Sequence record: PZ445423.1
Length of the DNA stretch: 58,567 nucleotides
Origin: a phage
Direction: 5' to 3' (one strand)
Below the pieces are notes generated by a model that was given only the letters and a program-made list of their open reading frames with translations, searched no databases and had not been told where the DNA came from. Within the stretch, counting starts at the first letter, position 1. Each line of letters begins with the position of its first letter. Of this stretch, positions 1,572-34,587 are shown piece by piece. The position numbers and the translations under genes are program-made.

Positions 1572-3068
1572 ATGGGTATTGATGCAACTCACCCGCTATA
1601 TGACAAGTGGAAGGACGCATGGGTTAAGTGCAACGACTGCTATGAGGGTGAAGATAAAATTAAGGAAGAAGGTGTTAAATATCTACCACCTTTAGCTTCC
1701 ATGATTATTGATGGGATGAATAATCCTAATGATTTGGGCTTTCAACGTTGGCTCGCTTATCGTCTGCGTGCTAACTTCCCTGACGATTATTCAAGTGCGG
1801 TTACAAACAATTTAGGTCTGCTACACCAGAAGCCTCCTACAATCCAGCTCCCACCTGAAATGGAATACATGCGGGAGCTGTGTACTGCGGACGGTGAAGA
1901 CATTATTGCTCTGCTACGTCGCATCAATGAAATGCAGTTAAAAAATGGACGTTTGGGCCTGCTGCTGGATTTGCCGAAAGGTGAGGATGTAAATAACAGA
2001 CCTTATATTAGCGTTTATGATGCTTTATCCATTATCAACTGGGGTGATGGTAAAGATGAATTGGGTAATATCAACTTGAACATGGTTGTTCTGGATGAAA
2101 GCGGTCCTGTACGTGTCAATCAGTTTGACTGGAAAGAAGAGAAGCGTTATCGCGTTCTACAATTAGGTCCAATGGACACAGATGAAGTAGCAGGTGGAGC
2201 GGTCTACTCCCAACATCTGTTTATTAACAATACCAATTATGATGAAGGGCAAATGATTGCTCCTTATTATAAAGGTAATACGCTGGATGAAATTCCTTTC
2301 CAGTTTGTCAATACAACAGATATTACCCCAGCACCGGAAGCGCCGCCATTGTTGGGTCTTGCTAACATTTGTCTAAGCATGTACCGAAGTGACGCGGATT
2401 ACCGCCAATGCTTGCATATGCAGGGTCAGGATACTTTAGTTGTTGTTGGTGGTTCCATGGAAAATGGAGATAAAGCCCCTCAGCGTATTGGTCCTGGTGC
2501 AGTCATTAACGTTTCTCAGGGGGGTGACGCTAAATATGTAGGTGTTAGCGGTGACGGTTTGTCCGAGCAACGTCTCGCACTGGCAGCGGATAAGCAGGAA
2601 GCCCAAATTAAAGCCGGGCAAATGGTAAACAATACCAAGAGTACGCAGGAATCAGGCGAAGCTATGAAAACGCGTATTGCTGCGCGTACAGCTAGTTTGA
2701 TTCGGATTGCGTATACTGGTGCGGCTGGTCTGGAAAACTTGCTGAAGGTTTGCGCTAAGTGGATGGGCGCTGATCCCGAGAAAGTTGTGGTCAAGCCTAA
2801 TCTTGAATTTACCAAGAGCATGTTTAACGGTCAGGACTTTGTTCAAATTATTACTGCACGCAACCTTAAGGCTCCGATCAGTTTGCAGTCTATTCATGGC
2901 TGGCTTGTTGATCAGGGCTTAACCACACTAAGCTTTGAAGAAGAAATGGCAATTCTTGAAGAAGAGCTTAAGAAGTGGCCTCTGCCCGATGATGCTAAAG
3001 CTGATTTAAACGCAGAGCAGCAAGTAAGCAAAGATCCTAAGGAAGACGACGCTTCCGATAAAGAATAG
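1572..3068 (+). CDS. portal protein (putative)
   Basis: 498-aa ORF directly after terL, with SD GGAGGG before the ATG and an acidic C-terminal tail; assigned by size and position. Confidence 0.55.
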   Translation: MGIDATHPLYDKWKDAWVKCNDCYEGEDKIKEEGVKYLPPLASMIIDGMNNPNDLGFQRWLAYRLRANFPDDYSSAVTNNLGLLHQKPPTIQLPPEMEYMRELCTADGEDIIALLRRINEMQLKNGRLGLLLDLPKGEDVNNRPYISVYDALSIINWGDGKDELGNINLNMVVLDESGPVRVNQFDWKEEKRYRVLQLGPMDTDEVAGGAVYSQHLFINNTNYDEGQMIAPYYKGNTLDEIPFQFVNTTDITPAPEAPPLLGLANICLSMYRSDADYRQCLHMQGQDTLVVVGGSMENGDKAPQRIGPGAVINVSQGGDAKYVGVSGDGLSEQRLALAADKQEAQIKAGQMVNNTKSTQESGEAMKTRIAARTASLIRIAYTGAAGLENLLKVCAKWMGADPEKVVVKPNLEFTKSMFNGQDFVQIITARNLKAPISLQSIHGWLVDQGLTTLSFEEEMAILEEELKKWPLPDDAKADLNAEQQVSKDPKEDDASDKE

Positions 3069-3163
3069 TTGCAACTTCCAAGTTGATTGGTTTATATTAA
3101 CGAACACGGGGCTGGGACGGCTCAGCTCCAAAAACGTCACACGGGTGACAACGGAGATAAGAA

Positions 3164-4036
3164 ATGAAAAAGAGTTCTGTAGCTATTAGTGTTGGTATGG
3201 CTTTAATTAATCCACGCGCTCGCGGTGAAGGTGATGTGGAACTGGAATACGAATATGCATCTGCGGAAGAGATCCCGGCAGAGTTTGCAACTCTTTACGC
3301 AGAGCAGGGCGGTAAATACGTTCTTGCAAAAGTTAAAGGTGTAGCCCCTGCTGATAGCGTTCGTCGTCTGGAAAGTGCATTAGCAAAAGAACGTAACGAC
3401 CATCGCCAGGTGAAGCAACAGATTAGCGCACTTGGGCGTCCGGTTGAAGAAGTCCTTGCGGACCTTGATCGTATCCCTCAACTGGAAGCTGCCGCTAACG
3501 GTAAAGGTACTCCGGAAGACATCGAAAAGATGGTTAAAGCCCGTCTTGCTCCGCTCGAGCGTCAATTGCAAACTGTAGCAGCTGAACGCGATTCCGTTAA
3601 GCAGGAAATTGAAGGCTACCGCACTCGCGAAACTAAAGCGAAGATTAAAGACGCAGTTATTGCTGCTGCATCCGGTGCTAAGCTGCGTCCGTCTGCTATC
3701 GAAGATGCGGTGACTTATGCACAGTTGCAAATGACCGTCGACGAGAACGGCAATGTGGTTACGAAAGATGGGGCTGGTGTAACTCCATACCTAACTCCAG
3801 CGGATTGGCTTAACGAGATCCTCCCGAAACGTCCTCACTGGGTTGAGGGTTCTGCTGGTGGCGGTGCGTCTGGTCCGGGCGCTGGCGGCCATCACGGTGA
3901 AGACCCATACAGTCACGACGGTTGGAACATCTCTAAGCAGATGAATCTCTGGAAAACTAATCAATCTTTAGCTAAACGCTTAGCTGAAAAGAATGGCGTA
4001 GACCCGCTGAAGCCTGTACGTCCTGCTAAGAAATAA
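3164..4036 (+). CDS. scaffolding protein (putative)
   Basis: 290-aa charged, coiled-coil-like ORF between portal and capsid genes, with a Gly-rich C-terminus; positional call. Confidence 0.45.
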   Translation: MKKSSVAISVGMALINPRARGEGDVELEYEYASAEEIPAEFATLYAEQGGKYVLAKVKGVAPADSVRRLESALAKERNDHRQVKQQISALGRPVEEVLADLDRIPQLEAAANGKGTPEDIEKMVKARLAPLERQLQTVAAERDSVKQEIEGYRTRETKAKIKDAVIAAASGAKLRPSAIEDAVTYAQLQMTVDENGNVVTKDGAGVTPYLTPADWLNEILPKRPHWVEGSAGGGASGPGAGGHHGEDPYSHDGWNISKQMNLWKTNQSLAKRLAEKNGVDPLKPVRPAKK

Positions 4037-4037
4037 G

Positions 4038-4083
4038 TTGACATCCCGACGTCCCTGATGTTAAGTTTCAACACATCAGGGAC
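4038..4083 (+). promoter_or_regulatory. TTGACA hexamer plus 11-bp perfect inverted repeat upstream of the capsid gene
   Basis: TTGACA at 4038-4043 and TTAAGT 17 nt downstream; stem GTCCCTGATGT (4051-4061) pairs with ACATCAGGGAC (4073-4083); no U-tract follows. Confidence 0.3.
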
Positions 4084-4158
4084 ACGGGTTCCTAAACAGC
4101 CTTCCACGGGGAAAGGCTACCAACAGTAAACAAATCAATCCTTTTCCTGGAGACAAGT

Positions 4159-5211
4159 ATGTCTAAATCTAAAATTATTCTGCCATTTGGTCGTGGTGAA
4201 ACTGACCTGACTCGTTTGAAGGATGTCATTGTCCCTGAGATCTTCACTGGTTATGTACAGACGCAGACCGCTAAACTTTCTGCTCTGATTCAATCCGGTG
4301 CGGTTGTAATGGACGAGCGTTTATCTGCTAACCTTGCTGGTGCAGGTCTGACTTTTAACGAGCCGTTCTATAACGACCTGAAAGATGAAGACGAAGATAT
4401 CGCTGTTGATAAAGGCGATCCGTCCAAACCGTCTAACATCACTACCGGATCTGAAGTTCAGGTTCGTATGAGTCGTTCAAAATCCTGGGGTTCTGCGGAT
4501 CTGGTATCAGCTTTGATTGGTAACGACCCAATGACCGCTATCGGTAACCGCGTGTCTACGTGGTGGGTCCGCCGTCTGCAAGCTGCATACATCGCAACCT
4601 GGAAAGGTGTATTTGCTAATGCGAAGAAATCACATAACGACGATTTGACTTTCGACATCTCTAGTTCTTCTTTTGTAAATAACCAGACCAACTTTACCGC
4701 GTCTAACTTCATCAACGCAACTGCAACGATGGGTGATGCTGCCCGCGGTCTGACTATGATTATGGTACACTCTACCGTTCGTAACCGTATGCGTCAGTTG
4801 AACCTGATCGACTTCATTCCAGATGCTCGCGGTGAAACTCAGTTTGAGTATTATCAGGGTCTGCGTATTATTGAAGACGACTCCATGCCACACGATCCGT
4901 CTGCTGGTGTGTTTGAAAGCTGGCTGTTCGGCCCGGGCGCAACTGCAATGGGTGCTGGATCACCGAAAGTTCCGACCGCTGTGGTGCGTGACGAAGCCGC
5001 TAACCAAGGCGCTGGTGAAGAAGTTCTTCACAACCGTGTTGAATGGATTCTGCATCCGGTTGGCCATGCTTGGGCTGCTGCTCAAACTGCTAAAGGTGGT
5101 CCGTCTAACGCTGCTACCACTAACAACCTGGCCCATGAAGATTCCTGGCGTCGTGCGTTCCCTGAGCGCAAGCAGCTTAAAGTTGCACGCCTGATCACTC
5201 GTGAGTATTAG
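4159..5211 (+). CDS. major capsid protein (putative)
   Basis: 350-aa ORF after the scaffold gene, SD GGAGA, followed by a strong terminator; positional call. Confidence 0.6.
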   Translation: MSKSKIILPFGRGETDLTRLKDVIVPEIFTGYVQTQTAKLSALIQSGAVVMDERLSANLAGAGLTFNEPFYNDLKDEDEDIAVDKGDPSKPSNITTGSEVQVRMSRSKSWGSADLVSALIGNDPMTAIGNRVSTWWVRRLQAAYIATWKGVFANAKKSHNDDLTFDISSSSFVNNQTNFTASNFINATATMGDAARGLTMIMVHSTVRNRMRQLNLIDFIPDARGETQFEYYQGLRIIEDDSMPHDPSAGVFESWLFGPGATAMGAGSPKVPTAVVRDEAANQGAGEEVLHNRVEWILHPVGHAWAAAQTAKGGPSNAATTNNLAHEDSWRRAFPERKQLKVARLITREY

Positions 5212-5251
5212 GGTTCCTAAGGCTTCACTCAACGCCGCGCTGTAGTATTTT

Positions 5252-5278
5252 GGGGACATCTTATGTCCCCTCTTTTTT
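5252..5278 (+). terminator. rho-independent terminator after the capsid gene
   Basis: GGGGACA-tcttA-TGTCCCC hairpin followed by TCTTTTTT. Confidence 0.75.
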
Positions 5279-5290
5279 AGGAGAACAACC

Positions 5291-5614
5291 ATGCGTTATC
5301 AACGTTATGAGCGACATGACTTGATGGAAAAATCGTTGCAGGTGGAGCCAATTTCGATTGCTCTCGATCCTGCTAAGATTGACACCACAACTTCAGAAGT
5401 AAAAACGGTTACTGTTAAAATAAACTTTGTCCCAGGCGGAACTACAAACAAAGCGTATAGCGCGTCAGTTGACGGTTCCTCTGCTACAATTAAAGACAAC
5501 GGGGACGGTACAATTACCGTGACCACAACCGAAAGCAGCGGTACTTCAAACTTGACAGTAACGTCCAAGGCAAAGGATAGTGTTACTGGTACATGTGTTA
5601 TTAATGTGACCTAA
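5291..5614 (+). CDS. Ig-like domain protein, possible capsid decoration
   Basis: 107-aa Thr/Ser/Val-rich beta-strand-like sequence (TVTVKINF, TITVTTTESSG, NLTVTSKAKDSVTGTCVINVT); SD AGGAGA. Confidence 0.4.
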   Translation: MRYQRYERHDLMEKSLQVEPISIALDPAKIDTTTSEVKTVTVKINFVPGGTTNKAYSASVDGSSATIKDNGDGTITVTTTESSGTSNLTVTSKAKDSVTGTCVINVT

Positions 5615-5630
5615 AAATAAGGATTAAACA

Positions 5631-6284
5631 ATGAAGACATTAATTGAAGCATTGTTAGAACTTGATCCGGAAAACCCGAATCATTGGACCAGCGATGGCT
5701 TACCTAAAGTAGACGCTCTGCGTTTCGCTACCGCTAACCCGTCTTTAACCCGCGACGATATTACGACTGCTGCCCCTCTATTCACCCGCGACAACCGCGT
5801 GCTGGAAGAGCCCGAGCCTGTGGAACCCGTTAAATCTGCTGATCCAGTTTTACATGAAGCAGTTAAACAGGAGAAAGCTCATGAAGAACAAAAGAAAGTC
5901 GCGGTTGCAACGATGCAAATCGAAGTTAAGATTAGCGAAGCACTGCGTGCTCTTCTGGAGCCGGAAAAAATCGGTGACGCTTCCATCTTAACCGATGAAG
6001 AACTGAAAGCGAAGCGCGAAAAGCTTAGCAATGTGGTTAAAGAGATTGCCCACACTAAGCACGCGTTGGAGCTCGCTATCGCAGACGTTCAAGCGGATCT
6101 GGATAAGATTATCGTTGAGCAGGAGCGTCGTCGTCCTAAGTCCGGTCTTACTGCAACTCAAATGTATCTTGAAGCGCAGAAAAAACGTAAACCGGAAGAC
6201 ATGCTTTCTGACCATCGCTTCCAGAACCCTATTGACGATCCGGTCGCCCGTATGGTTGCACGTAATATGATGCGTCGAGGTTAA
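5631..6284 (+). CDS. hypothetical protein in the head module
   Basis: 217-aa ORF with SD AAGGA and a charged coiled-coil-like middle region. Confidence 0.4.
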   Translation: MKTLIEALLELDPENPNHWTSDGLPKVDALRFATANPSLTRDDITTAAPLFTRDNRVLEEPEPVEPVKSADPVLHEAVKQEKAHEEQKKVAVATMQIEVKISEALRALLEPEKIGDASILTDEELKAKREKLSNVVKEIAHTKHALELAIADVQADLDKIIVEQERRRPKSGLTATQMYLEAQKKRKPEDMLSDHRFQNPIDDPVARMVARNMMRRG

Positions 6285-6422
6285 CCATGGAAATGAGCCA
6301 TAGACAACATGTGTTGTGGCTCCTCCGACGTAATAGAAAACGGCGTCAAGAAGGTGCCGTTTCTGTTCCTGAAGAAGAGCTCCCGCCGCTTATCCCTACA
6401 ACCATCGCAATGAGGAAGAAAG

Positions 6423-7720: not shown

Positions 7721-8169
7721 TGCTTGGATACGATTTCATTAATGATGCATTTAATAAGATGCTACGCGAAGCAGTTGGACCGGATATTGGTATAGCGTGG
7801 AAGAATAAGAAGTTCACACCTAAAGCCAACCAGATGTGGTTAAGGGCAATTAATGCTCCTGCTTCCACTTACGCTGCAACACTAGGTGATAACGGTCTCA
7901 ATGAAATTCCTGGCTTCTACCAAATCACAGTATATAGCCCTTTAAACACTGGAACGTCTAAGCAGAATCAAATCTTGGATTCTATTCGGAAAAAGTTTAA
8001 ACTAGGCTTGCGTATCCCGTGCCCGGATGACCACACGTTACGGATAGTCAGTTTAGACTTTTCGCAAGGTGGGCAAACTTCGCTGAACGATTTTACCAAA
8101 GGCGGGGTTGAAGATAACTGGGACGTTAACTTTATCACAATCTATTGGTCGGCTCGTGAGCCGAGGTAA
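7720..8169 (+). CDS. tail completion/terminator protein (putative)
   Basis: 149-aa ORF immediately before the putative major tail gene. Confidence 0.35.
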   Translation: MLGYDFINDAFNKMLREAVGPDIGIAWKNKKFTPKANQMWLRAINAPASTYAATLGDNGLNEIPGFYQITVYSPLNTGTSKQNQILDSIRKKFKLGLRIPCPDDHTLRIVSLDFSQGGQTSLNDFTKGGVEDNWDVNFITIYWSAREPR

Positions 8170-8183
8170 GAGAGGATCTAAAT

Positions 8184-9107
8184 ATGGCTACAGGTTCACG
8201 TTATTCGTGTTACTACGTCAAAGAAGATGTAAGCAACACTACGCCAGCGAATGCGAAGTTTACCCCGTTCCGTGTTACCAGCTCCGGTCTGGACATTAAT
8301 ATTGCAACGCTGGAATCTGAAGAACTGCGTGATGACGCAGAAACCGCAGACTTCCGTCTTGGCGCTCGAAGCGTTGAAGGTACGGTAACGGGCGAAATGT
8401 CCTTCGGTACGTTTGACGACCTCATTGCGGCAGCACTGCGCGGTGAATGGCAGGGCAACGTCCTTAAAGGCGGTATTGTTCGCCAGTCATTTACTTTTGT
8501 AGACTATAACGCAGATCTGCCATCAGGTAAATACACAATCTATCGCGGTTGTGAAGTTAACAGCATGACTTTCTCATTGTCTGCTGAAAACATGACCACA
8601 GTAGAGTTCGGTATTGTTGGTCGCTCGATGGAAATTGCGGAATCGCTCCCATCTGGTGCAACTATCAAAGAGCGTACAACTACTTCCCCGATGGACGGTT
8701 TCTCCGGTCGCTTGCTGGAAAACGACAAAGAGATCAGCGTTATTACGGAAATTGGTCTTACTGTTGAAAACGATATTGCACCGCGCTTTGTTGTTGGTTC
8801 TAAGTTCTCCATTGAACCGTCCGCTGGTCGTCGTGCGGTAACTGGTACAGCTAACGTTTACTTCCTGGATAACAAACTGCGTATGAAGTATCTGGATGAA
8901 GTGGAAACTTCAATCAAGTTTGATCTGATTGACCCAAGCAATCCGGAACAAAAATACACTGTGGAAATCCCTCGCGTGAAGTTCACTGAAGCTCCGCGTC
9001 CTATTGACGGTGAAGGGGATATCATGCTTAATATGGGCTATCGCGGATTGCTGGACCCAACAACCGCAAGTTCCATCAAAATTACCCGCGTTCTAGCGGC
9101 AGCATAA
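8184..9107 (+). CDS. major tail (tube) protein (putative)
   Basis: 307-aa ORF directly upstream of the chaperone and tape-measure genes. Confidence 0.5.
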   Translation: MATGSRYSCYYVKEDVSNTTPANAKFTPFRVTSSGLDINIATLESEELRDDAETADFRLGARSVEGTVTGEMSFGTFDDLIAAALRGEWQGNVLKGGIVRQSFTFVDYNADLPSGKYTIYRGCEVNSMTFSLSAENMTTVEFGIVGRSMEIAESLPSGATIKERTTTSPMDGFSGRLLENDKEISVITEIGLTVENDIAPRFVVGSKFSIEPSAGRRAVTGTANVYFLDNKLRMKYLDEVETSIKFDLIDPSNPEQKYTVEIPRVKFTEAPRPIDGEGDIMLNMGYRGLLDPTTASSIKITRVLAAA

Positions 9108-9116
9108 GGATAAGAG

Positions 9117-9524
9117 ATGACCGACACCAAAAAAGCCAAAGTTGCAGTAGCTAAAAGCTTCCGTGATTTTAAAACTGTGAGCCGGGCTAACGACCCGGCA
9201 AACACTAAGCCTATGAATGTGGTTATTCCTGGTGTAGGCGACACTGGCGAAAAACTCTACATTCGTAGCCGCTACTGCACAGAGTACCGTGATGCTGAAC
9301 TGAAAGCACAGCGTCAACTGTTGGCGCTTATGCAGGGTAAAGACGGTGAAGTAACGGATGCTATGAAGGAAGATATCCTTACCCGTTCACTGTGTAACCT
9401 TGTAGCAGGTTGGACTTTTGACGAGCCACCGACTGTTGACAACGTGTTTGAGTTCTTAACGGAGAACCCAACTGTCCGAGAAGATCTTAACGTATTTGCC
9501 GCCAAAGATAGTAATTTTTTCTAA
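9117..9524 (+). CDS. tail assembly chaperone (G-like)
   Basis: 135-aa ORF just upstream of the tape measure gene; ends at a TTTTTTC slippery heptamer. Confidence 0.55.
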   Translation: MTDTKKAKVAVAKSFRDFKTVSRANDPANTKPMNVVIPGVGDTGEKLYIRSRYCTEYRDAELKAQRQLLALMQGKDGEVTDAMKEDILTRSLCNLVAGWTFDEPPTVDNVFEFLTENPTVREDLNVFAAKDSNFF

Positions 9525-26575: not shown

Positions 26576-27528
26576 TAGACACGTTCTCCAATTAATACAC
26601 CGCGAAGGTTTTCCCCAAAGAATGCGCAAGGTTGCGGATATAAACTAAAGTCCGCAGTCTTAACCACATTTTCAAGCAATAGCAGGATATCAATATTGTA
26701 CACTCCCGTTATTGTGCGGTCCTGTAATACGAAGCTTGCACCTTCCGCATCGTCATAATGGGTACGCGCCAGACCGTTTTCAATATATACACGCGGTCGG
26801 TCTTCTGCGAACGGTTTAATTTTATGCAAGCCTTCAAAAAGACCTGGATCAACAGGATGTGCATTACATTGAACATTTAAAATACGACGTATATCGGGCC
26901 ACTCCGCATCAATAAGCTGTGTTCGCAACCAGCGGCCTTCCGGATAATGAAACGTTACATTGTTCTTACTAACCTGAATATGTGTCGGGTTAGCTTTAAT
27001 GCGAAGTATTTCTTTAATAGCAACAGACGGTATTATGCAGTCAATAGGGAATTGATTACCAAACCAATATTCCGCAATGGTGACGTTATTTGTAGCAAAC
27101 AGGCTACCGTTATTAATCAGAATACCGCAAGCCCACGGGCGGGACGCATCCGAGCCTACAAACGGAGCAACAGACTTCACACCGTGTACGAAGCGAGCAC
27201 CGTCTATTTCGTATAAATCACCTTCAGGGAATACGTGAGGCGTTTCCTTGTCAATGCAGCGTATAGCAACACGAAACGGTCCGGACTTAATATTAAGTTT
27301 ACCGTTAGCCATCATTGTTAACTGTACGGTTTCGTCACAGTTTGAAATAGCTTTAATCATAGGCCCAGCTTCAGGCTTGCAATCAATATCCAGCTCAATA
27401 GGGCTACCCAGTGCAATAACACCGTTAAAGCCCTGTACCTGTCCATCACGGATAAGAAAGCTGGTAAGCCCTTCTACCAGTTCCTTTTTAGCGACGGACC
27501 CTTGAACAAATTTAAGAGCGTCTAACAT
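26575..27528 (-). CDS. putative sliding clamp (beta-clamp-like processivity factor)
   Basis: 317 aa directly upstream of and coupled to the polymerase; ACGILINNGSLFATNN loosely resembles the beta-clamp LVATDGHRLA region. Confidence 0.35.
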   Translation of the reverse strand: MLDALKFVQGSVAKKELVEGLTSFLIRDGQVQGFNGVIALGSPIELDIDCKPEAGPMIKAISNCDETVQLTMMANGKLNIKSGPFRVAIRCIDKETPHVFPEGDLYEIDGARFVHGVKSVAPFVGSDASRPWACGILINNGSLFATNNVTIAEYWFGNQFPIDCIIPSVAIKEILRIKANPTHIQVSKNNVTFHYPEGRWLRTQLIDAEWPDIRRILNVQCNAHPVDPGLFEGLHKIKPFAEDRPRVYIENGLARTHYDDAEGASFVLQDRTITGVYNIDILLLLENVVKTADFSLYPQPCAFFGENLRGVLIGERV

Positions 27529-27755
27529 TAGCGATCCTCGATTGCTCTAATTGTGGTTAAATCTAATTCGCAGGTTGGAGGGTATCCATAAAGTCCCATT
27601 TGTTTTCCTTGTGCATTAAACCATGTACCTGACGGATCCTGCCACTGCTTAGGTGTCTTGTGGAGAAATACTACTCTGTTTTCACCATAATAATTAATTC
27701 TTACTCCTGTGTGAGTATATTTACGTTTACCTTTTGGTCTTCTTAAGTTAGCCAT
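27528..27755 (-). CDS. hypothetical basic protein
   Basis: 75 aa; stop/start overlaps with both neighbours. Confidence 0.35.
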   Translation of the reverse strand: MANLRRPKGKRKYTHTGVRINYYGENRVVFLHKTPKQWQDPSGTWFNAQGKQMGLYGYPPTCELDLTTIRAIEDR

Positions 27756-28675
27756 CAGAACAACTCCATTACACGATCACGGAATGTGCCGTCATGGGTG
27801 GCGTTAATGTTTGCAGCAATTACACCATACGCCCATAAGTTGAAGGCAGCACGTGATTCATAGATTGTTGATAAACGTTCGTAAGTGAAACCGTTTTGCT
27901 CAAGGTATTTAAGGACAGCATCCTGTTCAATTTCAGTTAATGTTGAAACATGCTTACCAAAATGATGGCGGTCCGGTGACTTATCTGATACGCGCATTGG
28001 TCCCCACGGAGGAGTAACCACACTTCCAAACGCTGCCGCTTGAATCCAGGAGGATGAGTCACAGCTATACCACGGATAACGCTCCATAATTGTTGTTGAC
28101 GTAATACCAAACGCATGAAGTTTAATCTTAGCACGCCCGCTACCGTCGCAAATATATTTGTCCCACATGCGGTCAAGCCAAGTTTTAAGCGTGTCCGTTG
28201 AACGCCCTACCATGCCCCCGATGGTGATGTATTCGTAGTTCTTCATGTAGTATTCAAGATAGCGGAAGTCCTCCCCGAAGTGGAAGCAGGGTAACGGTTT
28301 AGCACCGCGTGCTTCCATTTCAAGCTGGTTACGGTAGGTTTGCAACGGATCACCGATACCATCAAGCACCGATGCCATTACCGCACCATCTTCAACGCGA
28401 AGAATATCTTTGTTGCGCTTAATGTATTCACAGTATTCAACAATATCAATGTGAGCACCTAAAGAATGTGCAGAGAATGCACCGGAGTCGAGAAATACTT
28501 TAGCCCCGTCCGCACGCATCTGATCAACATACTTTTGACGCCCAACGTAGTGATATGATTCCAAAATATGGGGCAGATTGCGCGTGATATTTTTCTCATG
28601 CTCAGACAGCTTTTCATAACGCTGCTGGCCAGGCATATATCCGTTCGTGTAAACTGCTGCCATAAAAACGTTCAT
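27755..28675 (-). CDS. dpdA: DpdA-like DNA-guanine transglycosylase (TGT fold)
   Basis: 306 aa; FLDSGAFSAH matches the TGT active-site DSGGFQ region; adjacent to a full preQ0 synthesis gene set. Confidence 0.75.
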   Translation of the reverse strand: MNVFMAAVYTNGYMPGQQRYEKLSEHEKNITRNLPHILESYHYVGRQKYVDQMRADGAKVFLDSGAFSAHSLGAHIDIVEYCEYIKRNKDILRVEDGAVMASVLDGIGDPLQTYRNQLEMEARGAKPLPCFHFGEDFRYLEYYMKNYEYITIGGMVGRSTDTLKTWLDRMWDKYICDGSGRAKIKLHAFGITSTTIMERYPWYSCDSSSWIQAAAFGSVVTPPWGPMRVSDKSPDRHHFGKHVSTLTEIEQDAVLKYLEQNGFTYERLSTIYESRAAFNLWAYGVIAANINATHDGTFRDRVMELF

Positions 28676-28878
28676 TTTTGGAACGGCCCTCCAAACTGAT
28701 CAATTAGTTCTAAAGTACGCCACGTTTCATTAAATGCTTCGTCCGCTCGATGTTTAGCGTCAATAAGCTGCTGCTTTAAAACATCTGTAGGCGCATCATT
28801 CTGTATTGCAGAGCAAGCATCCGCAGTACCTGCTTTAAGCTGGTAGAATGCTGTCTCTAAGATTAGTTGTCTTGACAT
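28672..28878 (-). CDS. hypothetical protein
   Basis: 68 aa from the ATG at 28878 (SD GGAGGA); the longer track start would overlap the upstream hairpin. Confidence 0.35.
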   Translation of the reverse strand: MSRQLILETAFYQLKAGTADACSAIQNDAPTDVLKQQLIDAKHRADEAFNETWRTLELIDQFGGPFQK

Positions 28879-28890
28879 ATTTCCTCCAAT

Positions 28891-28930
28891 AACTAAAAAG
28901 CCCATACCAGTATTATGACCGATATGGGCT
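28891..28930 (-). terminator. candidate terminator/attenuator after folE
   Basis: On the - strand: AGCCCATA stem with 16-nt loop and TATGGGCT, followed by TTTTTAGTT. Confidence 0.4.
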
Positions 28931-28949
28931 TGATCTGTAAAGCTATCTA

Positions 28950-29597
28950 TTATTTACAAGCTTCGAGGAACTCCCGGCGCCAATATGCACCCATATCGGT
29001 TCCCCCCAGCCCCGCGCGTGCGGTGCATCCGCGGAACGCTTTGGTGATAGTAGAGCTGCCGCATACCTGCTTAACACCGCGCGACTCCATGCACATATGT
29101 TTGGCGTCAATATAAACACATACAGCTTTCGGGTTTAAATGCTCTTGAATAGCGTCTGCAATCTGGTTAGTAAGACGTTCCTGAACTTGCAGTCGACGAC
29201 TAAAAGCATCCACAACGCGAGACAGCTTACTAAGCCCAACAATCTTCCCATTGGGGACATAACCAACAACAGCATGACCGATGATAGGAGCCATGTGATG
29301 CTCACAATGACTGTATACAGGAATATCACGGACAATGACCATTTCATTGGTGTTTTCCGCCCCATCCTCAAAGGTTTTAAACAGACCAGCAATATCTACA
29401 TCGTAACCGCTAAACCATGTAGCATAAGCTTTAGCGACACGGTCTGGTGTCTCTGCTAATCCTGGACGTAATTCAATGCAATCTTCAATCTGAGTTAGTA
29501 AAGTATGCACCGCGCGAGCAATACGGAATTGAGTACCTTCATTATCAATAGTAAATTTTGGCATGGTTTGCAGTTTCCTTGTTGTTAATGTGGTCAT
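28950..29597 (-). CDS. folE: GTP cyclohydrolase I
   Basis: [18 protein letters not shown] and [17 protein letters not shown] match conserved FolE segments (ETPHRIAKMY, TSTCEHH in E. coli FolE as recalled). Confidence 0.9.
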
Positions 29598-29598
29598 A

Positions 29599-30120
29599 TT
29601 ACAGGCTATAGTTTACGTGACATTTCGAAGTTTCTTCGATGGTGCATTCTACAAGTTGAACACCATGTTCGTCAAGCAGTTGTGGCCCAATTACTTCAAC
29701 CATGTACGCAGCTAAGTTTTCAGCGGTCGGGTTGAATGGAAGTGACACCAGCGAACCTAAATAATCCATTTGATCCCGATGCGACATATTGTCCATAGTT
29801 GTCGTATCTACAAATTTATTTAAGCTCTCAATGAGAGGATCATGCTCCCAGTGCAGGAACTTATGGTCCCAGTTATCTTCCAGCCACTGACACAGCGTAG
29901 TTTTAACCACACTAAAATCGATCACGCGTCCCACGTTATCCAGCCCACCTTTTTCGCGAAGTGTGCCACAGCGAATAACTTTAACGTCCGTACGACCTTT
30001 CGGTGCAACCTTAAAGTGAAACTTATAATTATGACCGTGAAGGTGACGACACTTGCTTTCATGTCCTACAACACGATGACCGGCGCAAATTTCATGTGAA
30101 CGAATTACTGTATAGCTCAT
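29599..30120 (-). CDS. queD: 6-carboxy-5,6,7,8-tetrahydropterin synthase
   Basis: 173 aa with CRHLHGH (CxxxHGH zinc/catalytic motif of the QueD/PTPS family). Confidence 0.85.
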
Positions 30121-30665
30121 TTTAATACCTCTTTAGACTGTTCAATTTCTAACGCACGCTGTGCTGACGCAATAATGTCTTTCAAATCTTCTACAAGAGT
30201 CTTATGACCGCGTTCGCCAGGCTGCAACGCCTTTTTAATCAAATGTTGTAAAGCTGGGTTAGTTGTCTTCCAAGCTTCCAAGACATCATACACGTCTACG
30301 ATACATTTTACAACATTCCCATTTTGATCTTTACCATAAATAATTTTCTGATATTTATTCATGGGAATTTTAGATGGTTCGTATTTCATAAAAATTGCGG
30401 TTTTGTCAATTCGCCAATCGGGTAAATTCCCTTCAATGGCTTGCTTGGCATAATCCTCCGCAACAATATAACGCCAAGATATAACCGAATCCCGTTCTAA
30501 CGGTATTGCGTTATCGCAGGATTTTTTATACCAGTCCCATCCTTGCTTATGGTTTTTCTTAAGAGAACCGTCAGCTAATTGAACTTCAAACTGTTCGTTT
30601 TGAAGAAAAATGGGCATTCCTTTCCCATCGTGCTTGTGCCAGATTTTATTAAGATTATCTTTCAT
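30117..30665 (-). CDS. hypothetical protein embedded in the 7-deazaguanine cluster
   Basis: 182 aa from the ATG at 30665; start follows the transporter stop by a few nt and the stop overlaps the queD start; no motif recognised. Confidence 0.45.
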   Translation of the reverse strand: MKDNLNKIWHKHDGKGMPIFLQNEQFEVQLADGSLKKNHKQGWDWYKKSCDNAIPLERDSVISWRYIVAEDYAKQAIEGNLPDWRIDKTAIFMKYEPSKIPMNKYQKIIYGKDQNGNVVKCIVDVYDVLEAWKTTNPALQHLIKKALQPGERGHKTLVEDLKDIIASAQRALEIEQSKEVLK

Positions 30666-30667
30666 TT

Positions 30668-31147
30668 TTACGCTCTTGCTGTACGTGAATGAACTTCGTA
30701 AACAACCCAAAGGATAGCGGACGCTGTGAACTTACTTAAGCTCATTGCTACCATAGATCCCGGATTAACAATACCTATAATACTTAAGAACACAATGGAG
30801 TCAATCGGTACAGCTACCAAAGAGCTGATAAATACTCGTTGATGGAAAGGCTTCTTGGTGACCGTGTATACCACATAGTCCGCAAACTCACTAAGCGCAA
30901 AAGACGCAACGGATGCAACTACAACCGCAGGATCTCCGAACACCCAGCTAAGGATGCAACCAACAATCATTGCAGGGATGACGCCTTTGCCAGCGTTACG
31001 CTGTGCGTAATCACGCAGAACAAAGATAATACCTACAAAGAAAGCCATCATTGGGACTACGCCAAGTGGCGTATTAAGCATCGGAAGGTAGGAAAAGCCC
31101 AGGTTTACGAATGTAATTGCAGCCAGATAAGCAACGATAAATTTCAT
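30668..31147 (-). CDS. integral membrane protein, putative 7-deazaguanine precursor transporter (YhhQ/QueT-like)
   Basis: 159 aa, SD GGAGA, 4-5 predicted TM helices; located inside the que cluster; family call tentative. Confidence 0.45.
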   Translation of the reverse strand: MKFIVAYLAAITFVNLGFSYLPMLNTPLGVVPMMAFFVGIIFVLRDYAQRNAGKGVIPAMIVGCILSWVFGDPAVVVASVASFALSEFADYVVYTVTKKPFHQRVFISSLVAVPIDSIVFLSIIGIVNPGSMVAMSLSKFTASAILWVVYEVHSRTARA

Positions 31148-31267
31148 ACTTTTGTTCTCCAGTTTTAACAGCGATATTCGCTGGTTGTCGGGTTTAAAAG
31201 CTTTAGTAGTATAGTTGGGTTACCGCACCCTAAACAATGCGCTAGCGGTGCGGTTTTCGCGGTAAGA

Positions 31268-31990
31268 TCAAATGTGTTTGCTGTAAGCCTTATCCATAAA
31301 TTCGCTATAGCCTTTAGCGCGAAGTTTACACGCCGGGCATTCCCCGCAACCGTATCCCCAGTCATGCAGAGTACGACGGACGCCATTATAGCACGTATGG
31401 GACTGCTCAATTACTGTGGTTAAGAAACCAACCTTATCCGCCAGCTCAAACGTTTCCGCTTTGTTTAAACGCATAAGCGGAGTAACAAAATGGATATCTG
31501 TTTCATATCCAACGTTTAACGTAGCTTCAAGCAAATCTACAAACTGCTGACGGCAGTCCGGATAACCGCTATAGTCCGTTTCACAAACGCCCGTAACCAC
31601 ATATCGGGCTCCGACCTTCTGCGCGTAAGCGTGCGCGGTAGTCAGGAAAAGGGCATTACGGTTTGGCACAAAGCTTGCCGGAAGGTTGTTGTGCTGTTCA
31701 TGATACTCGTTAACATCACCTTCGTTCCCGATTAAAGCGCTATTGCCGATCTGTTTCAAAGCAGGTAATTCAAAGACAACAAACGGGACATTGTGCTCTT
31801 TACAAATTTGATTAGCACAAGCCAGCTCAATGTTATGACGTTGACCGTATGCAAAACCGATAGCGTAGACTTTGTCATAGTTATTAAGTGCAAGACCCAA
31901 ACATGTCACGCTGTCCTGGCCGCCAGACAGGACGACAACGGCGGAGTTATGATTTTTTACAGGGAATACCAGTTTATCTAATTTATTCAT
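31268..31990 (-). CDS. queC: 7-cyano-7-deazaguanine synthase
   Basis: 240 aa; PP-loop VVLSGGQDS; C-terminal Cys cluster CYNG...CGECPAC typical of QueC zinc site. Confidence 0.9.
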   Translation of the reverse strand: MNKLDKLVFPVKNHNSAVVVLSGGQDSVTCLGLALNNYDKVYAIGFAYGQRHNIELACANQICKEHNVPFVVFELPALKQIGNSALIGNEGDVNEYHEQHNNLPASFVPNRNALFLTTAHAYAQKVGARYVVTGVCETDYSGYPDCRQQFVDLLEATLNVGYETDIHFVTPLMRLNKAETFELADKVGFLTTVIEQSHTCYNGVRRTLHDWGYGCGECPACKLRAKGYSEFMDKAYSKHI

Positions 31991-31991
31991 T

Positions 31992-32180
31992 TTAGAAACC
32001 TTTAAGGCTAATATTAAGGTTAATGACTACTTGTTCAACTACAGCTTCAGAGGTTACCTGACGCTGGTGTATCTCAAGCTCCGTATGTATTTTCTTGGAT
32101 GCAGCACGACAAATAGCGTCATTCAACTCGTCTTGTAAACGTTGAATTTTCTGCATAAGGATTACAGTTTCTTCATTCAT
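31992..32180 (-). CDS. small protein, paralog of the upstream ORF
   Basis: 62 aa; shares the pattern L-x-x-L-N-x-A-I-x-x-A...H-x-E-L-[DE]-I...V-x-x-V-x-I-N with 32173-32385; stop abuts the queC start. Confidence 0.5.
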   Translation of the reverse strand: MNEETVILMQKIQRLQDELNDAICRAASKKIHTELEIHQRQVTSEAVVEQVVINLNISLKGF

Positions 32181-32385
32181 TTACTTCACCTTTAATATCA
32201 CAAGGGTTGATTGTTACGTTAGACATCACAATTGGATGATTGCGAGCTCCAATTGTGCTAACGTGATTAATATCTAATTCTACATGCACGCCCTGCATAG
32301 TAGCGTGAGCAATTGCAGAATTAAGTTTTTCTACCAGTTCAGTGATCATTTCCTGATGCTGTTTCGCTTCTTCCAAAGTGATCAT
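32173..32385 (-). CDS. small protein, paralog of the downstream ORF
   Basis: 70 aa; start overlaps the queE stop (TAATG) and stop overlaps the next ORF start. Confidence 0.5.
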   Translation of the reverse strand: MITLEEAKQHQEMITELVEKLNSAIAHATMQGVHVELDINHVSTIGARNHPIVMSNVTINPCDIKGEVNE

Positions 32386-33092
32386 TATTCCACCCCGATA
32401 TATTTGTGAACCTGAAGCTGCAACGTGTAACCGTATTTCATACAGCTTTGGACAACGGCTTGGATATTACTGTGGTTAAGGTCTTCATCCTGCTCGTCCA
32501 TTGGCTGTAAATATATCTTACCCTTGAAACCCTTCGGAGGTCTAGCGATAAATGGCGTAGCTTGATGATCTAATGCCTGAAGCGGCAAACCATCTTCCAC
32601 GTTTACACAGCACGCTTTAAGTACATATTTAAATGCATTAGCGCGGCGCAGCACAGAAGGATGAATCTTTGAGGTCTTGGGGCTACATACAATTACAGGT
32701 AACTGGGAAAAGTTCTTAGGTAAAGGCATAGACCCATTAGTTTCAATTTGCACCAAATAGCCGCGCGATAACAGTTGTTCAATAAACGGGTTAATTTGCT
32801 GACGGAACGGTTCACCCCCAGTGATAACCACAAGTGAGGTGCTATTGCCTGATTCCAGCTTACGGCTTTCGATTAAACGCATAATATCGACAATATGATA
32901 AAGACTACGACCAACAGTATAATCGGTATCACAGCCAGGGCATTGCAGATTACACCCAGCAAGACGCACAAATACAGCAGGTTGGCCGCAGAATGGACCT
33001 TCACCCTGAATGGTAGAGAATACCGAATGCACGTCTAAATACATATCGTTTTCTTTAGAACGGGACTCGGGAGCTTGTTGATTAATATTCAT
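32385..33092 (-). CDS. queE: 7-carboxy-7-deazaguanine synthase (radical SAM)
   Basis: 235 aa with CNLQCPGC cysteine motif and Gly-rich SAM region VVITGGEPF; SD AGAGGA. Confidence 0.85.
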   Translation of the reverse strand: MNINQQAPESRSKENDMYLDVHSVFSTIQGEGPFCGQPAVFVRLAGCNLQCPGCDTDYTVGRSLYHIVDIMRLIESRKLESGNSTSLVVITGGEPFRQQINPFIEQLLSRGYLVQIETNGSMPLPKNFSQLPVIVCSPKTSKIHPSVLRRANAFKYVLKACCVNVEDGLPLQALDHQATPFIARPPKGFKGKIYLQPMDEQDEDLNHSNIQAVVQSCMKYGYTLQLQVHKYIGVE

Positions 33093-33161
33093 CTTAAATC
33101 CTCTAGTGAAAAAGAAAGCGCCTCATTGGGCGCTTTCATTATAACGTGATATGTTTTGATA

Positions 33162-33965
33162 TTACAAGCCGTTCAGGGCTTCCGGTACTGGCATAGGTAC
33201 GCGACCAGTTACACCATTAAACTTCTTCCAACGTGCATACTGAGTTTTAACGGTATCTTCGTTCAGACCGTGGCGACCTGCCAGATTCAGAACATAAGAG
33301 ATTGGAGCAGGCTGACCCAGCGTAGCGCTAATCTGATCCATCAGGGCCCAGGCACGACCGCAGGAAGTTTCAGGTTGCGGACGACGAACACCATTCTGTT
33401 CAGGCATACGGTTCGCTTCTTTCGCTTTTTCACGTTCAGCTTTTTCGCGGGCTTTTTCAGCAGCCTTTTCAGCCTGTTTAGCAGCGCGGATCTTGTCTTT
33501 GAAGCCTTTGATAGACGAATCCAGTTCGTCAACCATGCTCTGAGCAGCAGTTACTGCACCGGACAGATCTTCACCTTTGGATTTTTTAACAACTGCTTTC
33601 AGCTCTTTCAGAGCATTCTTTAAATGCTTCAGCTGTTCAGAACCCTTAGATTCTGCTTCCGTGATCTGATCAACAGTGCTTTCATCGGTAATACCGGATA
33701 AAGCAAACTTCACGGTTTCAACTGCCTGAGAAAGAGCGGTAAATTTATTTTCCGCTTCAGTACGAATTTCAGCTTGTTTCTTTTCAGCGGCAGCTTTTTT
33801 CTCTGCTTCTTTTTTCTCTTTTGCTACGCGTGCAGCTTCAGCGGCAGCGGCTTTTTTAGCTTCTGCATCGTTAGCAGTAGCTTCTTTCTTTGCAGGCTTA
33901 GCAGATTTTGCAGCGGCAGCAGCGGCTGCGGCAGCAGCGGCTTTCTTATCTTCAATATTACTCAT
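33162..33965 (-). CDS. Ala/Lys-rich histone H1-like protein with a globular C-terminal domain
   Basis: About 267 aa from the ATG at 33965 (SD GGAG; track start is GTG); long AAAAAAAAAAAKSAKPAKK / KKAAAE low-complexity run. Confidence 0.5.
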   Translation of the reverse strand: MSNIEDKKAAAAAAAAAAAKSAKPAKKEATANDAEAKKAAAAEAARVAKEKKEAEKKAAAEKKQAEIRTEAENKFTALSQAVETVKFALSGITDESTVDQITEAESKGSEQLKHLKNALKELKAVVKKSKGEDLSGAVTAAQSMVDELDSSIKGFKDKIRAAKQAEKAAEKAREKAEREKAKEANRMPEQNGVRRPQPETSCGRAWALMDQISATLGQPAPISYVLNLAGRHGLNEDTVKTQYARWKKFNGVTGRVPMPVPEALNGL

Positions 33966-34092
33966 TTTCTTCACTCCGAATTATTATGGGTTCGTTTGTT
34001 ACCAACGGGGTTAAATGTACCAAAGGATTTTGTGACACGCAACCCCTTACATAAACATTTTTAAAAATATTTTTGATCAGGGTTAGAACTTA

Positions 34093-34587
34093 TTAGCTCT
34101 TCGCACCTCTGCCCGGTGTCCATGCTGCTTGCAATGCGTGTTGCTCACAAATGACCCTGGCACCGGAAATAATACCACCCTCCCGTTCAGCATCGTATTT
34201 GACACGGGCAGGTTTCCAAAGTCCTTCATCCATTGACGGAACGTATTGCCCAATTTGAGGTGAGCAAAAGCCTTGGATATCGTATTCCACACAGAATTCG
34301 GCTTGTGCTCTGATTTGGGCGTGATCCAGGATCGTTTCTGGAAGTTGCGTAAAGTAATCAGACAAAATGCGCTCAACGATTTCCCGTTCATATGGTGCAG
34401 CTCCTAAGTTTTCTGTCAGATTAATATAAAGCATTTGAAGATCAACATCTTCAAGATCTTTTAAATCGTTTACTGGTGTTACCAGTGTTGACTCTGGACA
34501 ACAGATAATTCCAAGTTGGTGTAATGTCAACCAATTGGGATGCTTTGCCAAGAGTTCAAATTTATCTGTATCAATTAGGACGTACAT
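34093..34587 (-). CDS. hypothetical acidic protein
   Basis: 164-aa ORF with SD AGGGGA. Confidence 0.4.
   Translation of the reverse strand: MYVLIDTDKFELLAKHPNWLTLHQLGIICCPESTLVTPVNDLKDLEDVDLQMLYINLTENLGAAPYEREIVERILSDYFTQLPETILDHAQIRAQAEFCVEYDIQGFCSPQIGQYVPSMDEGLWKPARVKYDAEREGGIISGARVICEQHALQAAWTPGRGAKS

Follow-up and report, generated by a model that had tools for sequence, protein, structure and literature searches.

We assign the two genes between queC and queD in the 7-deazaguanine cluster of a Seuratvirus (Queuovirinae) to separate roles: a 159-aa protein of the VUT family would be a putative preQ0 importer, and the adjacent 182-aa protein (ORF182) would be a modular early protein with no dedicated pathway step, a joint reading to which we give a probability of about 0.6. 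The window is the whole 58,567-nt stretch analysed (PZ445423.1), and its source phage shares ~93% identity with known E. coli phages.

Organization of the gene cluster

All genes and sites described here lie on the minus strand. The 159-aa gene (VUT/COG1738, YhhQ-like; 30668..31147; Pfam Vut_1, phrog_4899) and the gene for ORF182, a soluble protein (30117..30665, stop codon counted, with its ATG at 30665; phrog_23361), are flanked upstream by queC (7-cyano-7-deazaguanine synthase, 31268..31990; Pfam QueC, E=9.6e-75) and downstream by queD (6-carboxytetrahydropterin synthase, 29599..30120; Pfam PTPS, E=1.2e-21), just where the preliminary description had placed them. Beyond queD lie folE (GTP cyclohydrolase I, 28950..29597; Pfam, E=3.7e-63) and dpdA (DNA guanine transglycosylase, 27755..28675; phrog_887, E=8.2e-96), and on the other side of queC lies queE (radical-SAM 7-carboxy-7-deazaguanine synthase, 32385..33092; weak Pfam Radical_SAM and Fer4_12 matches); the queE product is 99.6% identical to CAjan QueE, and DpdA is 100% identical to CAjan DpdA. 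The source phage would swap part of its G for dPreQ0.

Upstream of queE we found a promoter-like site (33167-33138) and a terminator-like hairpin (33114..33137; 9-bp stem with six G-C pairs, T-run), and 3' of folE a second terminator-like hairpin (28898..28931; 14-bp stem, then TTTAGTTATT). The first hairpin probably delimits the queE-folE transcription unit on its upstream side, and the second probably closes off downstream the unit containing the 159-aa gene and ORF182; a unit running queE-...-queC-VUT-ORF182-queD-folE, with both ORFs inside it, is probable. The stop codon of the 159-aa ORF is followed by two bases and then by the ATG of ORF182 (TAAAAATG), and the ORF182 stop and queD start overlap as ATGA, so the earlier claim that ORF182 is coupled to queD is correct. 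Both genes are kept in dozens of phage genomes and in many metagenomic contigs and are therefore real genes, not chance ORFs. An Rfam search of positions 27000-34500, including the 120-nt queC-VUT spacer, returned no preQ1 riboswitch or other relevant RNA element (E<=5), and a hairpin in this spacer has only mild stability (z=-2.0).

The 159-aa membrane protein

Judged by its sequence, the 159-aa protein belongs to the VUT/COG1738 (YhhQ) superfamily, of which it is a minimal, pared-down form with six helices. Its gene is preceded by a GGAG ribosome-binding site, and the product is strongly hydrophobic, with 5-6 segments over residues 1-150 (Kyte-Doolittle) and only 16 charged residues, in agreement with the polytopic topology described earlier. 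Its sole Pfam match is to Vut_1/PF02592, the YhhQ family (E=2.2e-5, residues 66-145), with a score of 25.3 bits that falls below the gathering score of 27.2. Against TIGR00697 it scores 22.2 bits (cut-off 50.95), and an NCBIfam scan gave no match to NF008406; nine relatives, the 183-193-aa forms included, also fall below the equivalog cut-off, and E. coli YhhQ reaches 229.6 and 391.8 bits with the two models. An hhalign comparison with E. coli YhhQ gave E=0.0095 with the same motifs aligned, and BLASTP between the two proteins gave no significant match; substrate specificity is therefore not transferable by homology. When 13 sequences, E. coli YhhQ among them, are aligned, N15, D46, R50, S67, A78, S79, D90, S108, D116 and F120 do not vary. 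Relatives found at E-values down to 1e-13 are tagged PF02592 and, in their source records, go by names like 'queuosine precursor transporter', this precomputed tag being present on many close relatives and absent on others.

The preliminary description had likened the protein to a small transporter of the YhhQ or QueT type. The YhhQ half of this suggestion stands, and the QueT half falls away, as the Pfam scan at E<=0.1 gave Vut_1 only. A holin identity was likewise rejected: Pfam and PHROGs gave no holin family, and the gene lies in a preQ0 operon.

Import of preQ0 or a closely related 7-deazaguanine base is the most likely mechanism suggested by the sequence of the 159-aa protein. Situated in the host inner membrane, the protein would take up the free base and so add a salvage substrate for DpdA to that supplied by the phage's de novo pathway, and it would be dispensable while de novo synthesis works. 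The idea itself is not new: the protein is 100% identical to the 'putative preQ0 transporter' of CAjan, a preQ0 importer has already been published or annotated for this phage gene in CAjan and BASEL phages, and a pathway scheme exists for CAjan.

The distribution of the family points the same way. VUT occurs in 75 phage records (Escherichia 31, Vibrio 19, Rhizobium 14) and DpdA in 236 (Escherichia 40, Vibrio 23, Rhizobium 14), and the phage VUT distribution is nested within the DpdA-bearing groups and found almost only there. A 48%-divergent lineage of Seuratvirus-like phages has the same order, queC-VUT-ORF-queD. In Vibrio phage K392 a DpdA-like gene overlaps a short VUT gene, and FolE, QueD, QueE and QueC are missing from the whole of its 48-kb genome.

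It is unlikely, in our estimate, that the 159-aa protein instead handles another substrate (queuine, a purine or a vitamin), exports a by-product (guanine set free by DpdA, for instance), or acts as a membrane-level exclusion factor. Such roles would accommodate the scores under the equivalog cut-offs, the identity of only 21% to YhhQ with some 60 of its residues missing, the CAjan deletion that shows no phenotype (in rich medium) and the VUT homologues situated away from deazaguanine genes, some phages having no such gene within 7 kb of a short VUT. They fit poorly, however, with the co-occurrence of VUT and DpdA across Escherichia, Vibrio and Rhizobium phages, the DpdA+VUT-only pair of K392 and the retained family motif residues; moreover, the one characterised family member cited, E. 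coli YhhQ, a preQ0/preQ1 importer of queuosine salvage, carries preQ0 (Zallot 2017).

The CAjan ΔyhhQ mutant bears on both genes. This mutant has a wild-type level of DNA modification in rich medium, but its 550-bp in-frame deletion creates a fusion in which VUT residues 55-159 and residues 1 to ~77 of the following ORF are gone. Because the fusion truncates the neighbour too, the phenotype of the only published ΔyhhQ phage mutant is not assignable to one gene. The fusion retains the C-terminal module of the ORF182 orthologue, so that, for this protein, the mutant informs on the N-terminal part only.

ORF182 and its C-terminal module

The longest form of ORF182, starting at a TTG at 30710, would comprise 197 aa. 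Translation from the ATG at 30665 yields a protein of 182 aa that begins MKDNL, in agreement with all homologues. The protein belongs to phrog_23361 (E=3.5e-104), has 391 homologues and gives no Pfam or NCBIfam match. It is composed of an N-terminal beta-rich domain (residues 1-70, 30456..30665) with the motif W-x-x-H-D-G-K-G-x-P ... W-R-Y, a variable linker (residues 71-103, 30357..30455; pLDDT below 50) and a conserved C-terminal module (residues 104-182, 30120..30356), which AF2 models as a beta-hairpin plus three helices with a pLDDT of 87.8 and whose core reads VDVYDVLxAWxxxNPALQHLIKKALQPGERGHKxLxxDLxDIIxSAxRAxE. For the N-domain, AF2 predicts five strands at low confidence, and Foldseek gave weak Sm/Hfq-like matches only (E about 0.25); similar N-termini occur in P0073, P0101 and P0108.

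The three parts differ in their rates of change. Identity between ORF182 and its CAjan orthologue is 54% in the N-domain, 18% (with indels) in the linker and 81% in the module, beside adjacent VUT and DpdA proteins that are 100% identical, and nothing else in the cluster diverges as fast as the N-terminal part. In Nonagvirus the module is carried by a 252-aa protein encoded between queE and gat-queC, with an entirely different N-terminus, and module-only proteins of 76-111 aa exist that have no N-terminal domain.

Among phage domains that have neither a family model nor a function, the module ranks with the more widespread: its family numbers at least 4,537 protein cluster representatives, and neither Pfam nor NCBIfam has a model for this ~75-aa unit. 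Between phages infecting Halomonas, Edwardsiella and Escherichia, and in many sequences from uncultured sources, its identity stays at 75-79%. Twenty-four positions are invariant, and because 14 polar or charged residues are near-invariant across phages of unrelated hosts, the module is predicted, as the most likely reading of its sequence, to bind a universal ligand that carries phosphate, either a nucleotide or a nucleic acid. Domain fusions were considered as a functional clue and set aside: only one of the ten longest module proteins has a Pfam domain (RNHCP), and a single BRCT fusion was found, in an Aeromonas phage protein. The window holds no second copy of the module or of DUF3310.

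ORF182 and the 7-deazaguanine pathway

ORF182 had been put forward as a candidate new component of the pathway, and the evidence goes against this. The module was found in 755 phage records, mostly Salmonella (369), Escherichia and Acinetobacter (46) phages without DpdA, versus 236 records with DpdA-like genes, of which only three are from Salmonella phages and in which Acinetobacter is absent among the ten genera listed. Since most module-bearing phages lack DpdA, ORF182 is unlikely to be a dedicated 7-deazaguanine component. Outside Queuovirinae, the module gene lies among unrelated early, recombination or accessory genes, with deazaguanine genes lacking there; the N-terminal part of ORF182 diverges fast, and the CAjan mutant deprived of that part modifies its DNA fully. 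A missing pathway enzyme is thus unlikely. We propose instead that ORF182 would be a modular early protein, in which a variable N-terminal beta domain and linker precede a constrained module; the N-terminus would tune the context in which the module acts, and Queuovirinae would carry the gene in the operon as a trait of their lineage.

An alternative, possible although we do not favour it, is that ORF182 is a host-takeover or counter-defence protein whose module docks on a conserved host machine, whose N-terminus varies in an arms race and whose place in the operon is incidental. The fast-evolving, mosaic N-terminus and linker beside 100%-identical neighbours would be expected of such a protein, and small ORFs are gained and lost between ORF182 and queD. 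Elsewhere the module gene is found among small early genes, adjoining a Lar-like protein in Bas79 and an Stp-like peptide in Rtp, and DUF3310 proteins trigger defence systems (gp1.7 with Avs5). However, the level of module identity across phages of diverse hosts would be unusual for an anti-defence protein.

We also considered whether the module is a divergent non-P-loop nucleotide kinase of the DUF3310/gp1.7 type, in which case ORF182 would be a nucleotide-pool enzyme in a GTP-consuming operon. T7 gp1.7 phosphorylates dGMP and dTMP to diphosphates (PMC11897194), and its C-terminus is a DUF3310 domain (PF11753, 4.5e-23). The architectures are alike, with a variable N-terminus, a ~65-75-aa C-terminal domain starting K/H-Y, and a shared domain end made of a basic helix-loop and a D-L-x-x-A helix. 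Foldseek searches of BFVD with the module returned matches named 'Nucelotide kinase' (E=0.08-0.15), 'SaV-like' (E=0.24, TM 0.55) and 'polynucleotide kinase' with a probability of 0.99, yet E-values of just 0.01-0.25. The same region of the phrog_25460 profile is matched by gp1.7 and by a module protein, though only 2 of 30 module family members match this profile, and hhalign pairs ALQHLIKKALQPGER with CLGNILKYRLRAGKK, with E=0.46. In three lineages, the module gene is adjacent to or near a kinase-less phosphoesterase: the HAD_PNKP-only rtp4 adjoins it in Rtp, a metallophosphoesterase adjoins it in Kagunavirus XY2 (Guernseyvirinae), and LAh_7 gp41 lies two genes away.

Against a kinase stand the sequence comparisons. 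None of 55 module family members matches PF11753 at E<=1, and reciprocal hmmsearch between the module and DUF3310 gave no E-value under 0.08, with small databases; only T7-like sequences went into the DUF3310 profile, which limits its sensitivity, and a search for a solved DUF3310 structure found none. As Pfam, hhalign and reciprocal HMMs were all non-significant, DUF3310 homology by sequence was rejected. The phosphoesterase neighbour is absent in most lineages sampled. We therefore regard the link between the module and DUF3310 as suggestive only and a gp1.7-type kinase as rather unlikely; the module may nevertheless work in a manner like that of the DUF3310 domain of gp1.7. A more elaborate proposal, in which the module is a deeply diverged DUF3310/gp1.7 fold that re-phosphorylates guanine nucleotides in Queuovirinae and elsewhere serves as kinase partner of end-healing phosphoesterases, seems distinctly improbable. 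Its 'split polynucleotide kinase' element, pairing the module with a kinase-less HAD_PNKP or metallophosphoesterase, was rejected and is kept only as part of an alternative, because neither the related Veterinaerplatzvirus nor five other lineages have this neighbourhood.

Finally, ORF182 might genuinely assist the dPreQ0 system of Queuovirinae, for example by helping to target DpdA to DNA or load it there, or by handling guanine or preQ0 nucleotides, with the module as a generic nucleic-acid-binding handle. The gene is inside the operon and translationally coupled to VUT and queD, its position is kept in the 48%-divergent lineage, both Queuovirinae genera keep a module-bearing gene in the cluster, and the unassigned genes of the CAjan cluster are unexplained in the literature. 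Nevertheless, we consider such a role very unlikely: most phages with the module lack DpdA, CAjan does not need the N-domain and linker to modify its DNA, the divergence of ORF182 is far above that of the pathway genes, and the 9g dpdA, as the sole phage gene expressed in E. coli, is enough for dPreQ0 to enter plasmid DNA.

Implications

The transporter supports the published idea that phages replacing G with a 7-deazaguanine can both synthesise the base and scavenge it, and the presence in K392 of DpdA and VUT without synthesis genes raises the prospect that salvage may be the sole source for some phages. For ORF182 the outcome is negative, with no missing biosynthetic step to pursue, and its ~75-aa module could be defined as a phage domain family in its own right. 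For the field, a caveat follows from the published ΔyhhQ mutant, which also truncates a neighbouring gene.

Comparison with known systems

The closest counterparts of the 159-aa protein are CAjan YhhQ (AJT60526) and the 'preQ0 transporter YhhQ' of BASEL Seuratvirus phages (e.g. bas25_0039), which are 98.7-100% identical to it and occupy the same slot between queC and the ORF182 orthologue; they are the same gene in other isolates. E. coli YhhQ is likewise a polytopic inner-membrane protein of the same Pfam family, with shared invariant residues and genomic linkage to 7-deazaguanine genes, but it is longer (221 versus 159 aa), and the residues that the phage protein does without correspond to an N-terminal extension, a ~20-aa insert between TM3 and TM4 and a C-terminal tail. 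The ECF S-component QueT resembles the 159-aa protein in its proposed role as a queuosine-precursor importer and differs in that, besides the lack of a Pfam QueT match at E<=0.1, no ECF energising module lies nearby.

The orthologues of ORF182 are the hypothetical proteins CAjan AJT60525, Seurat gp37 and VogelGryff bas25_0038 (phrog_23361), encoded in the same slot, with C-terminal modules 81-99% identical to that of ORF182. The N-domains of the CAjan and VogelGryff proteins share 54-60% identity with the one here, CAjan carries a replacement linker, and these phages have an extra ORF of 107 or 89 aa before queD that the source phage lacks. T7 gp1.7/DUF3310 (PF11753, 'SaV-like') is alike in that its small C-terminal domain follows an N-terminus that varies or is missing; the predicted topologies and the positions of basic residues are comparable, and weak structural and PHROG bridges link the two. 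The motifs, in contrast, differ, GNxxKYxxRxGKK in DUF3310 versus NPALQHLIKKALQPGERGHK in the module, and the two share no significant sequence or profile similarity.

The two ORFs and their gene cluster

Two minus-strand ORFs occupy 30117-31147 between queC and queD, where the preliminary description had placed them, as judged from the ORF list and the Pfam matches of their neighbours. One encodes the 159-aa membrane protein (VUT; 30668-31147, minus strand) and the other the 182-aa protein ORF182 (30117-30665 including the stop codon, minus strand). The mechanical ORF list carried the ORF182 frame on to a TTG at 30710; because every homologue begins with MKDNL, the start was set at the ATG at 30665 instead. 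Two bases separate the VUT stop from the ORF182 start, and the ORF182 stop overlaps the queD start (ATGA), in agreement with the proposed coupling to queD. Pfam assigned the neighbouring minus-strand genes to the radical-SAM protein QueE (32385-33092), QueC (31268-31990), QueD/PTPS (29599-30120) and FolE (28950-29597), and PHROGs assigned DpdA (306 aa; 27755-28675, minus strand). Strong terminator-like hairpins flank queE-folE on the queE side (33137-33114, minus strand) and the folE side (28931-28898, minus strand), which places VUT and ORF182 in what looks like a single transcription unit, queE through folE. Together with a promoter-like site on the queE side (TTGTAA-18-TATAAT, within 33114-33167, minus strand), these hairpins enclose queE-folE, and dpdA and a 77-aa ORF would thus appear to form a separate downstream unit.

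A 2.7-kb query around VUT and ORF182 matched 37 phage genomes with identities of 87-96%; almost every one belongs to Escherichia Seuratvirus (Queuovirinae). When the cluster was compared with that of phage CAjan (KP064094), the genetic model for dPreQ0 DNA modification, DpdA, VUT and a 75-aa ORF were 100% identical and QueE and QueC 98-99.6% identical, whereas identities across 28950-30665 were 55% for ORF182, 79% for QueD and 78% for FolE. The cluster is mosaic, and this pattern suggests a recombination tract over ORF182-queD-folE.

Several other elements were observed in or beside the cluster. The 120-nt queC-VUT spacer, the sole sizeable intergenic gap in the operon, contains a hairpin (31222-31254, minus strand; z=-2.0) with a 12-bp stem (ACCGCACC...GGTGCGGT) and no T-run; it had no match in Rfam, and a preQ1 riboswitch was ruled out on this basis. 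One related record carries an annotated terminator somewhere along the matched 2.7-kb stretch. Directly upstream of the operon lies a gene for a 270-aa protein (33162-33974, minus strand), the CAjan orthologue of which is annotated as 'FtrA domain-containing'; its long, Ala/Lys-rich, low-complexity N-terminal half (AAAAAAAAAAAKSAKPAKKEA...) is reminiscent of histone-H1/AlgP-like DNA-binding tails. Four small conserved ORFs of 62, 70, 77 and 75 aa (31992-32385, 28672-28905 and 27528-27755, minus strand) matched only PHROGs without an assigned function, one of which is named 'radical SAM domain-containing protein', apparently an annotation carry-over from queE.

A divergent VUT protein associated with DpdA

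The 159-aa protein had been described as polytopic and, tentatively, as YhhQ or QueT-like. Hydropathy indicated 5-6 hydrophobic segments, with 16 charged residues in the protein, consistent with a polytopic topology. Its sole Pfam match, Vut_1 (PF02592, YhhQ family; E=2.2e-5), covered residues 66-145 only and, at 25.3 bits, fell short of the 27.2 gathering score; against the NCBIfam 'queuosine precursor transporter' equivalog, for which the cut-off is 50.95, the protein reached 22 bits. Neither QueT nor any holin family was matched, and both assignments were ruled out. A search of 5.8 billion proteins returned 108 relatives, almost all of 152-167 aa and many encoded on contigs of phage size (about 55-62 kb). 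Among them, a set of weaker matches of 183-201 aa (E 1e-13 to 1e-7) carries PF02592, with source names that include 'queuosine precursor transporter'. None of the relatives tested reached the equivalog cut-off; the score of E. coli YhhQ was 230-392 bits. Direct comparison with E. coli YhhQ was weak by hhalign (E=0.0095) and not significant by BLASTP. In a joint alignment, N15, D46, R50, S67, A78-S79, D90, S108, D116 and F120 were invariant from phage VUT through E. coli YhhQ, but the N-terminal extension, the C-terminal tail and a TM3-TM4 insert of about 20 residues are missing from the phage protein. The weak direct similarity, the shared residues and the missing segments therefore place it within the VUT superfamily, as a minimal and divergent branch rather than a YhhQ equivalog.

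Using tblastn, the short VUT was found in 75 of 50,697 phage records (Escherichia 31, Vibrio 19, Rhizobium 14), and DpdA-like genes in 236, including 40, 23 and 14 from the same hosts, respectively. By these host-group counts, the short VUT is therefore essentially limited to phage groups with a DNA transglycosylase. A Seuratvirus-like lineage whose ORF182 orthologue shares only 48% identity retains the order queC-VUT-ORF-queD, and queE, queC and queD lie 5-6 kb away from VUT in an uncultured 70-kb phage. As exceptions, two VUT lineages had no deazaguanine gene within 7 kb of VUT. In Vibrio phage K392 (OZ196346), a DpdA-like gene and a short VUT gene overlap (8094-9358), and no FolE, QueD, QueE or QueC homologues were found in the complete 48-kb genome. 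This pair has the arrangement expected of salvage-only modification and is a candidate 7-deazaguanine DNA modification module.

YhhQ homologues in some phages were noted by Hutinet 2019, and Olsen 2023 mentioned yhhQ as an insertion that is specific to CAjan and follows queC. In the scheme of Kot 2020, CAjan YhhQ provides an alternative supply of preQ0; the same study reported wild-type modification in ΔyhhQ CAjan. The gene is annotated 'preQ0 transporter' in BASEL and other records. Given the family and the DpdA-linked distribution, the earlier idea of a phage importer, a putative preQ0 transporter, was thus correct in kind but not new.

ORF182 and the published ΔyhhQ mutant

ORF182 had no family match in Pfam or NCBIfam and corresponds to phrog_23361 (function unknown); residues 88-179 matched five further PHROGs. 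Its 391 homologues fall into two groups: about 60 full-length proteins, mostly on Seuratvirus-sized contigs, and hundreds of proteins (100-309 aa) in which the similarity is confined to the last 55-75 residues (52-79% identity). The alignment contains 24 invariant columns: K104, Y105, D124, V125, Y126, D127, A131, N136, A138, L139, H141, K144, K145, L147, G150, R152, H154, K155, D160, I164, S167, A168, R170 and A171. AlphaFold modelled the whole protein poorly (pLDDT 65.6), with a low-confidence beta domain in the first 70 residues and seeming disorder at 71-96; the C-terminal module (residues 104-182), modelled alone, reached 87.8, with a beta-hairpin followed by three helices. Compared with CAjan, identity was 54% in the N-domain, 18% in the linker and 81% in the module, between VUT and DpdA that are 100% identical, indicating that the three parts evolve very differently within Seuratvirus. 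The Nonagvirus version of the module (52% identical) is joined to an unrelated N-terminal region of about 175 residues, and the resulting 252-aa protein is encoded between queE and gat-queC. The module occurs nearly alone (76-111 aa) in Rtp, Guernseyvirinae, Hafnia phage yong3 and many metagenomic proteins. Small ORFs also come and go in the ORF182-queD slot: CAjan has one of 107 aa, VogelGryff has one of 89 aa, and the window has none.

The ΔyhhQ CAjan genome is 550 bp shorter, with a deletion from 31,850 (Kot 2020), more than the 480 bp of yhhQ itself; the dpdA allele 'del29212-29521' (Hutinet 2019) implies that the position given is that of the first deleted base. A 166-aa protein assembled from four public runs (SRR14312197-200) joins VUT residues 1-54 in frame to residues about 78 to 189 of the CAjan ORF182 orthologue. 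The flanking sequence matches CAjan at 100% identity, and exactly 550 bp are missing between the flanks (KP064094 31851-32400; about 30435-30985 in the window). Because deletion size and position are identical, these data suggest that the runs carry the published mutant. If so, the mutant appears to lack most of VUT and the N-domain and linker of the ORF182 orthologue while keeping the module, and the wild-type modification phenotype of this sole existing ΔyhhQ mutant would concern two genes, with the module still present.

ORF182 had also been proposed as a candidate new pathway component. The module profile matched 4,537 cluster representatives at E<=1e-3 among 1.84 billion proteins (2,318 at E<=1e-10), and tblastn found the module in 755 phage records (Salmonella 369, Escherichia 191, Acinetobacter 46, Klebsiella 24, and others). 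A DpdA-like gene is present in only 3 Salmonella-phage records, and the ten genera listed for DpdA do not include Acinetobacter. Outside the preQ0 cluster, in the lineages sampled (Bas79, Rtp, Jerseyvirus, Kagunavirus, Obolenskvirus, two Zobellviridae, Lavrentievavirus, Veterinaerplatzvirus, Sharonstreetvirus and two uncultured phages), the module gene adjoins small early, recombination or accessory genes, and no deazaguanine genes were found nearby. Furthermore, dpdA of 9g expressed alone in E. coli yields dPreQ0 in plasmids. The spread of the module, its neighbours, this result and the normal DNA modification of the apparent CAjan mutant therefore speak against ORF182 having a dedicated role in biosynthesis or insertion; the module might still have a lineage-specific auxiliary role. 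Its remaining interest is as a widespread phage domain without any Pfam or NCBIfam model.

Possible function of the module and comparison with T7 gp1.7

In three unrelated lineages, the module lies near phosphoesterases without a kinase domain: in Rtp (region 1444-2524) it adjoins the 'polynucleotide kinase' rtp4, which has HAD_PNKP only; in XY2 (Guernseyvirinae; region 1820-3177) it adjoins a metallophosphoesterase of 376 aa; and in LAh_7 (region 3932-6325) it is two genes from the gp41 phosphoesterase. Such a neighbour is absent in most other lineages. In Rtp, an Stp-like peptide gene comes next, and the LAh_7 module, near gp41, is fused to a BRCT-containing protein.

T7 gp1.7 is a nucleotide kinase that converts dTMP and dGMP to diphosphates (PMC11897194), and its C-terminus is Pfam DUF3310 (PF11753). 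Every sequence-level test of kinship between DUF3310 and the module failed: PF11753 matched 0 of 55 ORF182-family members, reciprocal HMM searches gave no cross-match, and hhalign paired the expected motifs at E=0.46. One region of the phrog_25460 profile was matched by both gp1.7 (E=1.1e-3) and a module protein (E=3.1e-4), but only 2 of 30 module members touched this profile. Because 14 polar residues are near-invariant across phages of unrelated hosts, a universal ligand is favoured over a host-specific target. By analogy, gp1.7-like binding of a nucleotide or phosphate ligand is our best mechanistic guess, albeit a tentative one with roughly one chance in five of being right. ORF182 is laid out like T7 gp1.7: the N-terminus is variable, the small C-terminal domain behind it starts with H-Y/K-Y, and the two C-terminal domains have in common a basic helix-loop and a D-L-x-x-A helix.
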